From positions 3,658,001 to 3,722,000 of the forward strand of contig CAIIXF020000001.1 in the NCBI GenBank assembly GCA_903813345.2: DNA of 64,000 nt, read 5' to 3'. Source of the DNA: Owenia fusiformis. Its lineage: Eukaryota. Both the position numbers and the translations under genes were made by a program. The notes below the pieces were generated by a model. The model was not told the origin of the DNA, made no database searches, and saw only the letters and a list, made by a program, of their open reading frames with translations. Below, piece after piece: positions 51,201 through 57,200 of the stretch; positions within the stretch are counted from its first letter, which is position 1, and every line of letters starts with the position of its first letter.

Positions 51201-54200
51201 CATTTTAATTATTTTCGATTATTTTTTATACAACGTATGGAAATGTATTTTGTAAAGTCATTAATTTTATGAAGATAATGTCACTTACAAATATTTATTG
51301 CAGGTTGTGTAGACCGTTGATGCTTGATTTAAAGCAAAAACATTGACTTTTGCATGATGGTGGCGTTGCGCCTTTTTTAATAGATCTTATACCTAAGAAG
51401 AGAATCGGCTAAAAAAAATTCGTAGAATACGCGACATATTTTACCATACCGTGCGCCTATTCGTTTAGCAATTAAATCATAAACCTTTTCTTGAAAAAAT
51501 AATTTTTGCAGATTTGTTCATTTTTCTACCAGAAATTGCTTGCTCCCCCCTCCGTCCCATTTTCACGATCACCGGGTGGGAGGGTATCAACCACACTTTA
51601 TGATTTTTCACTCTAAAACACCTGAGTGTGAAACATCATATTTAGAATCTCAAAATATTTTTTCATATTTGTGACTTGCTTTAATATATCTTTCCACAAA
51701 GAGAATATTTTTGGTGTGGGAAAACTGGAAAATGAAAATAAAGGACGATTCTCGGTTTGGAGAACAGTCTCCTGAGCTAATAATTTTTTTCATGAAAAAT
51801 ATAGAAATATTACCCAAATTAAACTATGAATATTCAAAAGAGGACATTTAAATCTACAAGATGTTATAATAACAAATTGGTCTGAAGCAGGGATAACACT
51901 CAATTAGACAGATTCAATAAAATACAAGTCTCGATTTGGGGAAAGAAGCTCATCAGTGTACTGCGCTAATATTTTTTTGCGAAAAATCTAGAAATATTAC
52001 CCAAATTAAATTATGACTATTCAAAAGAAAACATTCAAATCTATATTATGTAAAAAAATCAAATTTGTCCGAAGCAGGGATAATGCTCATTTAGATTGAT
52101 GAACTTCGTTCTCCAAACCGAGAATCGTCCTTTACATATCATTTATTTTCTCAGAAGGCTAGAAAAATAACATGGGAAATAAAGACTATGATGTGTTTTA
52201 CCTGGATATACAAGGAAGTCACCTCCAAACTTGCCCCCAGCAGTGAGAAAATGCCCCTGCTCCCATAGATCTTTGAAGACTCTATAGCGCAGAAGTTCTG
52301 AGTGAGTAGATGGGAACCCCCAGTTGGAATACAATGGCCTGTTTGATTCACTGACATAGGGAGTGCCTGGAAATATAGGTAATGATGATGAATGATGAAT
52401 GATGAATGACTGTCGCATATATTGTAGATACACTTTATTTGGATACCGGCTTACTTTGACGGATTGGAGATTGTAATAATCTGCCAATTTTCAGATGTAT
52501 TTTATAAAATCCCCGGGGAAATTTCAGTTCATGCAGCGCACTTCCAGAATTAAACCCCCATTTTCCCCAAATTTTGTCACAATGTCAGAGAATTCCAGAA
52601 GAATTAAATTTCAGTCCTGAATCCCCCAAATCAAATAGCCTAGCTGCCAATATTTGAAATTGAGCAAATCTACCAAATTAAGTTGTATCAAATTAAACGT
52701 ATCTACAGTATTTAATACTGTTTGAACTATTATGGCTTGGTCTATTGATAGAAATATATTTGAACTCCTTGACTAATTCAAATTCATACCATACCGTAAT
52801 TCATACCTTTACGTAATTACAAATCTTGAATTGTTTTCTTTGTCAACAAACTATTTATAAAGATATATTTTAGTTATAAATAATGTTCATTGATGATATT
52901 AAAAGCTTCACATTTGTTGACATTTAATGTTATGACCCACGAAAATTAGTCAGTCAGAAAAATGTGTTAATATCTCCGTGTCTCAAAAGAAAGGTACTCA
53001 CAAAGAGTTTTTTGATTCTGCCCCTCTAGGAACTTAAAGATTTATTTAATAATGGTTTAACATGGTGCATATGATCTGATATTTAATCTTAACCTCTTAC
53101 ATGTCACATGTACTTAACTTATCATGCAGGGTGAAAGTGGTTAAAGGATATATGGTTGTCATGATGTGATACACATGGTTGAAACTTTATTTTGTACAAT
53201 ATTATCTTGAATTTTAAACATATGTCATAGTCCCTACAACAGCACCATTCAGTGCTCTTGGAAATTAATCCCTTCACAATAAAACACTTTCTGACAGTAA
53301 AAATAGCACCAGGGGTGTCACCACCAATAATACATTATTATGTAATGGGGTTTTTGATTTTAGAATCCAAATATAAAACACTCAGTATACAAAAATTCAT
53401 TGGATCATGGCATTCATGGACAGTCTTTATTGCACAAATTGTTACATTTCTTTTTACATCCAGCAAAATTCTTTGAGTGTTTCTTGATTTTATCCTTCTT
53501 AAAGAGTCTCTTCACTATCTTTATGTTGTCTAACTTTAGACTGTTATCTTCTTCTAACAACAGCAGCCTCAGTTCTTCATAACATCCATTTCTGCATTTC
53601 ATCTTGCAGTTCTCATAGTCACATCCTGGAAGAATAGGAATAAAAAAAAAACTGTTAAAAACTGTTTATGGAGAGGGGGGAGGTAATTGCTTTTTGCAGT
53701 TCTTCTAAAGTATGACAAACGGAACTATTTGGAGGATACTCTAATTACATTTCTGGCTTCCAATTCTTTACATTACAAAACTGAAATTTGTCAGTTGGTT
53801 AAGGATATCTTGCCACTTGATACCTTGGCTCATATTCATGAAGCAATCAAAGATTTAGCATAAGAATAGAGTATGTCATTGCATTTTTTGGTTGTGGGAT
53901 GCTATAAAATTATGTGTTAGGCTTGGTGGTCCAGGAGATCCTAACTAAACTCTAGGCTTTTGAGATTTTTCTCAGCAAACTCATGGCAATGATATTATGT
54001 ATGCCTGTGTAAATATCCAATGGCAATGACAATTGATTCCTTTTGATACATCATTAAACAATTGTCACATAACCATAAAATGTAGGCAAAAATAACAATA
54101 TTTCTGAGGGTGAGTTTCATCTTGTTAAATCGTCTTTTGTGTAAAAAACAGCTTTGTAGTTGAAATTACTAAAGTGTTGTATTGTATGATAAGTAGACGG

Positions 54201-57200
54201 TAAGAAGAGATTTTTCAGCCATTTTATTACATCTTTACCATAAAGTGCATTCATACATGATAACCCTGACACTTCATACAGTTCTAATTCATCCCATCAG
54301 CTGAACTCAAATAAAAATAAAATGTCCTAATATCAGAGCATGTTGCAAGTGAACTAAAATTGACATGGTAATCTAAATCATGATTTAGCAATTGCAAACA
54401 AACTATTGTGGAGGGTTATGGGTTATGTAGCTTATGTGGGAAGTGGGAGGGTTATGTACTCATACATGTAGCTTGAAGTTTGATGTTTGCGTCATGATTG
54501 ATAAATCATAATATTAACAAAGTAATGTTAATATAGTAATATTTCATTCATCACTTATCAAAATATATGAATTATGGGAGAATAAATACTAAATACACAA
54601 GTAGTTATGTTCATCCGAACAACTATCATTTTTATTTGATCTAGTTTACCTCTAAATTCATTTTTCTAATTAACATAAAATGCAAAACTAGTATTGTTGT
54701 CAACCCTTAGTTTTAGTTTTTCAAGATGTCTGTGTTTTTTCAATGAGAATAAGGAAGTCCCATAGCTGATGGACATCTAAATTCATCATGTAATGTTAAA
54801 AAGTTAAAAAGAAGACATCCTCTTTTTAGTTTATAATGAAGTTGGGCATTCCTGCATTCTAAATCTTCAACAACTTAACTATATTTAACTTAACTATATT
54901 TGGTTGAATATTTCAATTCTTTTCAGAAAACAGAATTGGGATTGTAAGGAAAATATTGGTGTGTTTTTTGACATCTTACTATCTCTTTTCCTTCTAATTA
55001 CTTGATTGCTTTAAGCATATACAGCACCAGGCCTACATCCAACCTACCTCTCTTTAACCCTGCCTGAATGACAGTCTGCTCAACCTTTGGGGGCTCAACT
55101 GTCCTTCCTATGAATAAGATGACACCTGTGGTTCTATCCCGAATTAAGAATATGAAAGGGTGGTCACATGTTATGGAGGACCTCACAGTCCTTGTAGTCA
55201 AAGTGGAAGTCATGGAGCTTGCCTCTGTCCCTGTAATAGAAACCAATGACCATCATTCAGTTGTATTACTTTCAAATGGCTCTACTGCCTATATAGAAAG
55301 TTATATAAGTTTATATATATATACGAGGGGTGACTCAAAAGTAATAGACAAAATTTCACAGGCATCCTTAAATTCATCCAATCTGTGTGGGATTAAGTCC
55401 ATAACAAGACCAAACAATTAGTTACAAGTTATGTTCAGTCAATACTAAACGTGAAAAAATACAAAATGTAGAAATGGCTTCATTTTCAAATTTGAGAATT
55501 GACCAGTGTTGACCTTTAAAAGGCCAAAAGTAGATTAATCAAATCATTTTATAAGATCAAAAAACAGGTGTTTCACAAGAATTTCTCACAACAGGCTAAA
55601 TAAATGACAACGACAAGCGAAAATCAATGGAAATAAATCTAACATGTAAAAATTGAAAAGTCCCTAAAAACAACAGGTGATTTTGTGGAAACAACCGGTG
55701 AAAATTGCCTGTTGCCTGCTGCTGAAAAAGTAATATTTCGACAATGTCAAAGGATAACTTGCTTCAAATAGAATCAATTATTTTTAGATCATATATATGT
55801 GATATAAGTTACTATTGATTTTAAACCTGTCATCTTTTGACCTTCAAAAGGCCAAAATGTTTAAGATAAAGATTACTTACAATCTTGAAGTCAAGTTATT
55901 ATTGAAAATTTTAAATTGAACCATACTAGGCGATGTATCAGTCTGAACAGTCATTGTGGTTCAATAAATCATTTACAAGTCAATGGCGCTAAACAGTAAA
56001 TACAAGTATAGCCATTTCCCATTTGTCTGTTATAAATATAGCATGTTCTGTGACATATTGTTGAGGATACAGTTGTTATAACACCATAAGCATTTCAACA
56101 CATATGACCTTAAATCATTTGAGACCTAGAAGATATTTGGCATTAGACTTCTACAAAATATAAATATTAAAGTACCTCTACCTAAAAATAGCAAAACAAA
56201 AATGGATCATAATCACTTAATCTTAACTTCCGAAAAGTAATCAATCATAAGTTAGAACATGCACTTGCTGCATCGTATGAGGCTTAGGCTCTTGACAATG
56301 TCTTAGGTTTAACTGCATACAAGCCAACTTGTGCACTATCTAATTTAGCATTAATGTGTTCTATGTCCTTTAACATTGACTAGACATTTATTATTTATTT
56401 GGTGACCTACCTTCCTCAGTGACCTTTATAACAGCTTCGTGCAGAACTGCAGACAGCGCAATACTTTGGTCATCACTAAATTGTGATAGATTTATCTCCG
56501 AAGAAAACAAATCTTTCATTCCCAAAGCCTTCAGATATAAATCAAGGGTGTATCGTGACTTTAACATCAGTTTCGGTAAGAAAATGTCTTTCTGGACAAT
56601 ACGCATTTGTTTTATCCCATGCATTAAGTTTTCTAGTGTCAGCTTTTGTTCAAGCTCAGGCAAGCCGTATGTTTCCTTTGGAATAACCAGAACCATGCTT
56701 AACTTTTGATGTTCATCCTCACGATATGGTAATTCAATAAACTCAGCATCCAATCCTGTGCTGTCGTGATAATTAAATTTACCAGTTTTATACATCATCG
56801 TCACATTTATAGCAGCAGAATTTGGGCTTGGATAAAAGTAATGAGGCTTTGTATGATTGGCAAGAAACTTTCCTCTCCATTCACCTTTGAAGTAAACAGC
56901 ATTGACGAGCACCATGACAGTGAGAGCATCCAGGTCCCCAGGGTGAAGAACATCTTTTATCATATTATTTGTGCGTTTCGCTACCCATTTATTTATTGTA
57001 TTCATACTTCCATCGACATCAGAAAAGTTTAACTGTCGCACTGAACCATCGTAAAAACGCTCAACATATCTTAGAAATGCATTTTTCACATTTAAATGTT
57101 TACTTGGGAAAAGTTTGTTGGCGGATATGAATTCATTGCCTGTTTCTCCGCTGTGAAGTAATTGCATCAAACACATTAAGGAATGATGCGCGGTCTCATC

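Follow-up and report, generated by a model that had tools for sequence, protein, structure and literature searches.

We analysed a 64,000-nucleotide window of the genome of the annelid Owenia fusiformis (assembly GCA_903813345.2, contig CAIIXF020000001.1, positions 3,658,001 to 3,722,000 of the forward strand; coordinates below are those of the window), and are concerned here with a minus-strand serpin gene whose last exon encodes a cysteine-rich C-terminal extension. In this report, we use the term tail to refer to the 69 residues C431 to P499 of the predicted protein. The gene has three exons (Table 1), and both exon junctions are in phase 1. The exon 1 donor reads AAG/GTAGGT (the slash marks the splice site) and exon 2 starts after TTACAG, while the exon 2 donor reads ..AAG AGA G/GTAGGT and the acceptor of exon 3 reads TTCTTCCAG/GA. 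From this acceptor, exon 3 keeps the frame for 70 codons up to a TGA stop, reading GCDYENC...NKDCP. Exon 2 continues the hinge and carries the reactive-centre loop (RCL), as EEG TEASSMTSTLTTRTVRSS, followed by the last strands of the fold and then by 14 more residues, PKVEQTVIQAGLKR; if it were left unspliced, the read-through form would end in ...LKRGRLDVGLVLYMLKAIK. Joined by their coordinates, the three exons give 1497 nt, or 499 codons, and this spliced coding sequence (CDS) agrees letter for letter with a public 499-residue “uncharacterized protein” of Owenia fusiformis (CAH1772429.1, A0A8J1YAG9). The sequence itself is therefore not new. The public protein sits in the 90% cluster of the exon-1 open reading frame (ORF), under a tail-less representative, and no published description of it, or of a Cys-rich serpin tail, was found in the open literature, judged by titles and abstract openings.

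Table 1. Features of the serpin gene, in window coordinates.
Feature	Coordinates	Strand	Remarks
Serpin exon 1	56411..57515	-	ATG at 57515; hydrophobic N-terminus; core to hinge (..VTEE); phase 1 end; contig piece 56410-57225
Intron 1	55231..56410	-	1180 nt, GT..AG; high-copy repeat inside; joint 55229/56410 (X9 contig, X13 reads)
Exon 2	55048..55230	-	RCL GTEASSMTSTLTTRTVRSS; strands s1C-s5B (..HPFIFLIRD..LFIGRTVEP); linker PKVEQTVIQAGLKR; phase 1 end
Intron 2	53626..55047	-	1422 nt, GT..AG; joint 53624/55047 (X9 contig; 2 X13 reads, 1 start)
Alternative stop codon	54998..55000	-	would end a read-through form that retains intron 2, 16 residues past exon 2
Exon 3, coding part (tail)	53417..53625	-	G430 (split codon) plus 69 residues C431..P499; X2 contig 53400-53630
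N-terminal Cys cluster CX4CX3CX3C	53582..53623	-	tail residues 1-14; C431, C436, C440, C444
C-terminal Cys cluster CX3CX3CX3C	53420..53458	-	tail residues 56-68; C486, C490, C494, C498
TGA stop of the spliced form	53414..53416	-	
AATAAA hexamer, probable polyadenylation signal	53426..53431	-	inside the codons for C-N-K near the CDS end

Evidence for the transcript comes from four sequencing runs, denoted X1, X2, X9 and X13, which were compared over positions 50700-64000. X13 is the only one of the four that is recorded as RNA, and was used as raw reads, of which about 6% were sampled; X1 and X2 include intronic and intergenic contigs and are uninformative on isoforms. One X9 contig of 1223 letters (depth 51.5) aligns in three pieces, 56410-57225, 55047-55229 and 53401-53624, with both introns removed exactly at the predicted GT..AG junctions. 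X13 reads cross the same two joints, two at 53624/55047 (one start, possibly one molecule) and two at 55229/56410 (two starts), and all four have the first mate on the plus strand, matching the neighbouring minus-strand gene (22/0, 10/0 and 12/0); these reads provide independent but thin support for the splicing. The depth of X9 is zero in both bins that lie fully within intron 2, and its depth of 10.8 in the bin 54696-55139 is the amount expected from the 92 exon bases of that bin alone, so X9 gives no sign that intron 2 is retained or that transcripts run on to the stop at 54998; X13 is too shallow to bear on such a read-through isoform. The X9 and X2 contigs, which come from two studies, stop at 53401 and 53400, 25-26 nt past the AATAAA hexamer. 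These ends, which contain no poly(A) letters, fit a poly(A) site about 13-16 nt beyond the stop codon. The serpin gene is expressed, the tail exon belongs to its mRNA, and the tail is almost certainly a real part of the protein.

These results bear out what the first-pass annotation had read from the DNA letters, namely a serpin with an appended tail exon, reached from the donor of the RCL exon at 55048 through an in-frame acceptor at 53625. The X9 contig and X13 reads cross exactly this junction, and all of the proposed coordinates, together with the tail peptide, are reproduced by translation of the exons and by the public gene model. Transcripts that read through to 54998 or omit 53414-53625 were not seen in X9, in which only the spliced form was observed. 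As an observation apart from the splicing, intron 1 harbours a repeated element at 55140-56027, with word depths of 1241-6124 in X1 and 709-3205 in X2.

The serpin assignment, likewise proposed at first pass, is secured by a complete match to the Pfam Serpin profile (PF00079), and the protein has a hydrophobic N-terminus. Residues 48-415 align with positions 2-370 of the 370-position profile (E 2e-107, 360 bits, cut-off 27); taken by exon, the match of exon 1 has an E-value of 8.7e-89, and exon 2 covers profile positions 321-370 of 370 (3.5e-10). The ATG is followed by the hydrophobic stretch MTLKTNPCILCLSFALMISSVIG, and the stretch CILCLSFALMISSVIG is a candidate signal peptide. The N-terminus is probably a signal peptide, and the six N-X-S/T sequons of the serpin are consistent with secretion. 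The hinge, E367-E-G-T-E-A-S-S-M375 (EEGTEASS), is of the inhibitory type, with small residues over P15-P9, which permit insertion of the loop; the consensus of inhibitory hinges is of the G-T/S-E-A-A-A-A type. When 39 serpins are aligned, the hinge columns V365, E367, G369 and A372 are nearly invariant, and E367, G369 and A372 are conserved in at least 90%. In the canonical register P1 would be T383, P2 R382 and P2' R385, and the RXXR string R382-T-V-R385 makes an Arg-directed, possibly convertase-like, target plausible. The closest non-self match of the serpin part in the protein collection searched has 36% identity.

What sets this protein apart from its relatives lies past the conserved C-terminal Pro. 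For the comparison, 38 serpins were picked by score and length from 121 non-self matches. The Owenia serpin has 84 residues beyond this Pro, with 8 Cys, and 37 of the 38 others have 0-13; the remaining one has a 36-residue extension that is acidic and Cys-free, and a Cys-bearing extension past the serpin fold is present in 0 of the 38. In a full-length AlphaFold2 model, whose input alignment with the 38 other serpins leaves the tail uncovered, predicted local distance difference test (pLDDT) values are above 90 in the serpin body and below 50 in the RCL (372-384) and the linker (422-429). The model thus shows a folded serpin body with a tail that is predicted to be flexibly tethered, by a linker that ends in ..AGLKR.

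The tail contains 8 Cys, 15 Lys and 3 Arg, and has a net charge of +8, which is distributed unevenly between residues 1-33 (net -3) and residues 34-69 (net +11). The strings FKKDKI and IKKHSK conform to a type of heparin-binding motif, XBBXBX. The Cys are at tail positions 1, 6, 10, 14 and 56, 60, 64, 68. When these are paired from the outside in, the position sums are 69, 70, 70 and 70, which is a mirror-symmetric register, and the fourth Cys lies before the other three in the first cluster and after them in the second, the arrangement that a helical hairpin stapled by an antiparallel ladder requires. The core units of the two clusters, CKMKCRNGC and CKKKCNNLC, are alike at 6 of 9 residues, and on a helical wheel each cluster has its Cys confined to a sector of 80-120 degrees (residues 6-14; 56-68). 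The ladder-hairpin motif C1X3C2-Xn-C3X3C4 is contained several times, as C436X3C440...C490X3C494 plus further rungs. The four-Cys motif is confined to these two sites when the window is translated in all six frames, and there is no second copy of the tail; the shorter motif CX3CX3C occurs at seven other sites in the window, which is the chance level.

An AlphaFold2 model of the tail alone, made from the single sequence with no alignment, has a pLDDT of 83.6 and contains helices at 3-25, 34-42 and 47-67, which run through both Cys clusters. On the strength of this model and the Cys register, we consider it reasonably likely that the tail is a disulfide-ladder helical hairpin, with the disulfide pairs being predicted. 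When the two halves of the tail (431-463 and 464-499) were submitted to complex prediction as separate chains, the score was 0.05 against a mark of 0.34, a result without controls that weighs neither for nor against the hairpin.

Searches for relatives of the tail, which covered protein collections, metagenome contigs and the window, were uniformly negative. No match was obtained at E<=0.001 with phmmer against 1.84 billion representative sequences, a library in which a 69-residue query needs roughly 40 bits to pass, and none at E<=10 against the sequences of all PDB chains. Among longer proteins that might contain the tail, 0 of 37 candidates reached E<=0.01; the ESM Atlas gave no usable match, and 0 of 472 pattern matches in metagenome contigs were confirmed. 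The protein collections show cluster representatives only, so fused forms of the tail elsewhere could sit hidden behind tail-less representatives. Pfam returned only sub-threshold noise for the tail (HLH, 16.2 bits with a cut-off of 20.7; IL15, 10.2 bits with a cut-off of 28.5). The suggestion at first pass that this is an unfamiliar architecture holds to the extent that the tail matches no described domain in Pfam or in the PDB sequences.

Several observations weigh against the picture of a stapled module that serves the serpin to which it is attached. In the full-length model the tail has a pLDDT of only 41-50, with short and fragmentary helices, so that the fold rests on the Cys register and the one single-sequence model. 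The four-disulfide helical hairpin of the first-pass annotation therefore stands only in part, being favoured by the register and the tail-alone model and not by the model of the whole protein. A Foldseek comparison of the tail-alone model with the PDB yielded 25 matches at E<=10, all of them generic helical hairpins, of which none reached E<=0.001, and a wide VIA-align search also returned only generic hairpins, with a best Z of 5.6, which is below the meaningful level for helices. With no homologue of the tail in the collections searched, there is no signal from conservation or covariation that the Cys or Lys residues are under selection. The number of Cys outside the signal region is odd (39, 115 and 390, plus the 8 of the tail), so pairings other than the ladder could occur. 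Coverage of the gene is very low in X13, the one true RNA run. Finally, a KR dipeptide stands directly before the tail, and fits the release of the tail as a free peptide, considered below, equally well.

The failure to find relatives is also what would be expected if the tail were a young, lineage-specific capture of an exon with little or no specific function, in which a cryptic donor within the former 3' end and a downstream acceptor added an AT-rich, Lys/Asn-rich ORF, tolerated on account of the flexible linker that carries it. The serpin itself has no relative above the identity given above, the richness of the tail in K, N, L and I is what AT-rich DNA (34% GC) gives, and the low pLDDT of the tail in the full-length model would also agree with such an origin. 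However, a frame of 70 open codons has P = 0.0054 at the local stop-codon frequency of 0.072, the tail has 8 Cys where about 2.3 are expected in 69 residues (P = 0.0023), and when 8 Cys are scattered at random over 69 positions, only 4 of 200,000 trials produce two mirror-symmetric clusters with spacings of 4-5. In addition, the stop codon and the AATAAA are nested at the extreme end of the exon, and no form other than the spliced one was seen in X9. We regard a functionless capture as improbable.

In the mechanism that we tentatively favour, the tail would provide a stable cationic anchor or exosite, which would keep protease inhibition local or make it faster. The serpin body would be a suicide inhibitor that traps a secreted serine protease, as suggested by the inhibitory hinge and by Arg382 and Arg385, which flank the canonical P1. 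The tail would fold independently as a helix-loop-helix whose ends are zipped together by the ladder C431-C498, C436-C494, C440-C490 and C444-C486, and this folding would set an acidic N-terminal helix against the strongly basic C-terminal half. Thus folded, the tail might hold the inhibitor on an anionic partner, for example a sulfated or acidic matrix or mucus, the lining of the tube, a microbial surface or, on the target protease itself, an acidic domain. Its role would parallel that of the extension of alpha2-antiplasmin, which acts for plasmin. In other serpins the fold ends close to the top of sheet A, at the pole to which proteases dock, and the tail would project from this end; the C-terminal tail of thermopin, which according to PMC8233489 lies at the top of sheet A, suggests by analogy that the Owenia tail emerges there as well. 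Since the C-terminal fragment of a serpin stays in the fold after loop cleavage, the tail would then remain with the complex.

The location of the tail bears on a second possibility, in which it would be a built-in conformational regulator. Folded back onto its own serpin body, close to the breach or to sheet A, it would make the metastable active state more stable, or delay it. The thermopin extension acts in cis from its position on the top of sheet A, and the somatomedin B (SMB) domain stabilises PAI-1 (both as described in PMC8233489); in the Owenia serpin, moreover, the tail begins just 15 residues past the last strand. Yet the full-length model does not place the tail with confidence and has a disordered linker before it, the tail has no Pfam Somatomedin_B match, and nothing else favours this arrangement, which we consider very unlikely.

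Release of the tail, rather than its retention as an anchor, would make the protein a carrier-plus-peptide precursor. A cut by a dibasic-specific convertase after K428-R429 would free a stapled, cationic hairpin of 70 residues with an antimicrobial, toxin-like or signalling activity. The K428-R429 pair immediately precedes G430-C431 at the end of the linker that is predicted to be disordered, and the acidic half of the tail, which is net positive overall, could mask the basic half. Processing of this kind has parallels in the alpha-hairpinins, which are cut from large folded carriers such as vicilin precursors (PMC11591084), and another marine worm has a four-disulfide hairpin toxin, nemertean B-IV (PMC6410017). 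On the other hand, the junction has K-R only, with Gly at P4, and therefore no RXXR furin motif, and there are more KR and KK pairs inside the tail itself. The tail helices have hydrophobic moments of 0.15-0.33, values that 3340, 2945, 3113 and 311 of 5000 shuffles also reached; in three of the four segments the moment is thus not above that of the segment's own shuffles, unlike classic lytic peptides, which weakens a membrane-lytic reading. The targeting or cationic effector module of the first-pass annotation stands as a conjecture. No similarity of the tail to B-IV or to any chain of the PDB set searched was found at the threshold given above, and a serpin that serves as a peptide carrier is without precedent in the open literature, as far as titles and abstract openings show. 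Taken together, we judge that release as a free peptide is unlikely.

Owenia builds a secreted tube, and the CX3C clusters might alternatively be cross-linking handles that swap disulfides with Cys-rich secreted proteins, thereby fixing the inhibitor in the tube lining, cuticle or mucus. Minicollagen cysteine-rich domains (CRDs) polymerise in this manner in the capsules of cnidarians. The pattern CX3CX3CX3C equals the first two thirds of the CRD pattern (PMC4863159), and the mature protein has an odd Cys count. Against this, the clusters have four Cys instead of six and no terminal CC, they are flanked by neither polyproline nor collagen repeats, and the CRDs are a cnidarian family, whereas the host here is an annelid. 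The mirror symmetry of the clusters is also better explained by intramolecular pairing, and a role in cross-linking appears rather improbable.

The remainder of the window contains several further features. Upstream of the serpin gene and on the same strand is a gene at 59100-63700, with introns at 59397-62307 and 62408-62620 (GT..AG) that are crossed by 22 and 10 X13 junction reads, respectively, and by one X9 contig. Its last exon has a stop near 59150, and its C-terminal sequence, MQVQIFTGK..., gives the impression of a ubiquitin-like fold. A third joint, 62719/63544, shows GT..AG only after a “cut +2” shift. Many other joints, found in all four runs, span 59683-62300, connecting about 59750-59780 with about 62043-62310. 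These lack splice dinucleotides, even at 59778/62043 with its 142 X13 reads, and the pattern is more suggestive of a repeated element present twice, or of a structural variant, than of splicing.

On the other side of the serpin gene, a high-copy repeat of about 394 bases occupies 51740-52133, where the word depth exceeds 10^4 in both X1 and X2, and X13 has hundreds of reads whose loose ends coincide exactly with the two edges. Overlapping the edge of this repeat is a 115-codon ORF at 52146-52490 (minus strand), which has a Pfam match (PF01974, 3.3e-9) to the catalytic C-terminal domain of tRNA intron endonuclease and probably belongs, as an exon, to the gene that follows the serpin downstream. 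Satellite-like tandem arrays are present at 47981-49825 (periods of 338-394, about 5 copies, 71-95% matches) and at 50243-50682 (period 63, 5.7 copies, 97% matches). At a greater distance, a single-exon ORF of 537 codons at 14690-16300 (minus strand) encodes a protein with a rhodopsin-type seven-transmembrane domain (Pfam 7tm_1, 2.5e-26). Among 5.8 billion proteins only its own record is found at E<=1e-10, which points to a very divergent, lineage-specific G-protein-coupled receptor. An Rfam scan of the window gave no match.

Few protein folds have been studied as well as the serpins, which have only a small number of terminal extensions, most of them short. A C-terminal module that is rich in disulfides and folds by itself would, if it is real, be a new way of endowing a serpin with an address or a second activity, and would be a clean case of domain accretion through a new terminal exon, with the stop and the poly(A) signal in its final 30 bases. 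Should the ladder fold be correct, the class of stapled hairpins, with 2-4 disulfides in free peptides of up to 55 residues, would be extended to a 69-residue domain in a large protein, and such a ladder-stapled scaffold would be of interest for peptide engineering. A bolder reading, which we put forward as a speculation more likely to fail than to hold, is that the tail represents an undescribed type of animal domain, an eight-cysteine “quadruple CX3C” hairpin and the largest of the ladder-stapled ones, which was captured as an exon onto a serpin in oweniids and makes the protein bifunctional, a secreted protease trap with a cationic anchor or warhead of its own, whose hairpin would either fix the inhibitor on surfaces or come free through a cut at KR. 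The practical weight of these considerations is limited, as they concern a single gene from a single non-model annelid, for which no relatives were found for comparison.

Comparison with known systems places the Owenia protein between the serpins with terminal extensions and the stapled hairpins. Alpha2-antiplasmin is a secreted inhibitory serpin with a lysine-bearing extension of about 50-80 residues past the fold, considered an exosite or targeting module; this extension is not known to be stapled by cysteines or to resemble a helical hairpin. The Owenia serpin resembles alpha2-antiplasmin in having a Lys-bearing C-terminal extension, although the sequence of the tail has no match in any of our searches. 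The SMB domain has eight Cys. It is a small module that is paired with a serpin, but it differs from the tail in its Cys pattern and fold and acts in trans, as part of a separate protein, vitronectin, when it stabilises PAI-1 (PMC8233489). The same source describes terminal extensions that are functional at sheet A, namely the C-terminal tail of thermopin, which packs on the top of the sheet, and the N-terminal extension of tengpin. As presented there, these extensions are bacterial, short and Cys-free, and pack on the serpin body, whereas the Owenia extension has 84 residues and is apparently an independent module behind a disordered linker. None of the Pfam profiles for SMB, Tim10/DDP twin-CX3C, saposin-like or other Cys-rich domains matches the tail.

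The plant alpha-hairpinins are defined by the motif C1X3C2-Xn-C3X3C4, and form a helix-loop-helix with ladder-like (I-IV, II-III) disulfides; their modules sit on a large folded carrier (vicilin) behind a signal peptide and are freed by proteolysis (PMC11591084). Six-Cys forms, C X3 C X3 C X10 C X3 C X3 C, also exist (PMC11591084; bioRxiv 10.1101/2020.05.26.118075), and some alpha-hairpinins are trypsin inhibitors (bioRxiv 10.1101/2020.05.26.118075). The Owenia tail shares with them the CX3C...CX3C logic, and its disulfides, if paired as predicted, would likewise form a ladder within a helix-loop-helix. In the descriptions given by these sources, the plant peptides have about 23-55 residues, loops of about 10 and four (rarely six) Cys, whereas the tail has eight Cys and a 41-residue spacer between the clusters, in which a third helix is predicted; it occurs in an animal, at the C-terminus of its carrier, and this carrier is a serpin. 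With 69 residues and no detectable sequence similarity to them, this annelid tail does not belong to the alpha-hairpinin family.

The Cys spacing of the nemertean neurotoxin B-IV is different from that of the tail. B-IV, of the nemertides beta, is a four-disulfide helical hairpin toxin of a marine worm (PMC6410017; PDB 1VIB), and stands alone with four disulfides among the members of the fold that the relevant part of bioRxiv 10.1101/2020.05.26.118075 names. It is a free toxin of 55 residues, whereas the tail is a domain of a larger protein. Searches with the tail gave no match to B-II or B-IV among the PDB chains at E<=10, a set in which the presence of 1VIB was not confirmed, and B-IV does not appear in the Foldseek or VIA-align results for the tail model. 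The CRDs of minicollagens and NOWA (CX3CX3CX3CX3CC, six Cys in about 20 residues) are knotted, not helical, and work by disulfide reshuffling (PMC4863159). Like the tail they have runs of CX3C at protein termini, but they are cnidarian and adjoin polyproline or collagen sequences, and the clusters of the tail, CX4CX3CX3C and CX3CX3CX3C, with four Cys each and no CC, fall outside this family. Ladder-stapled helical hairpins with two or four disulfides are thus precedented (PMC11591084; bioRxiv 10.1101/2020.05.26.118075; PMC6410017), and by this comparison the Owenia protein is a serpin with an orphan, eight-Cys C-terminal module that is probably of the ladder-stapled kind.

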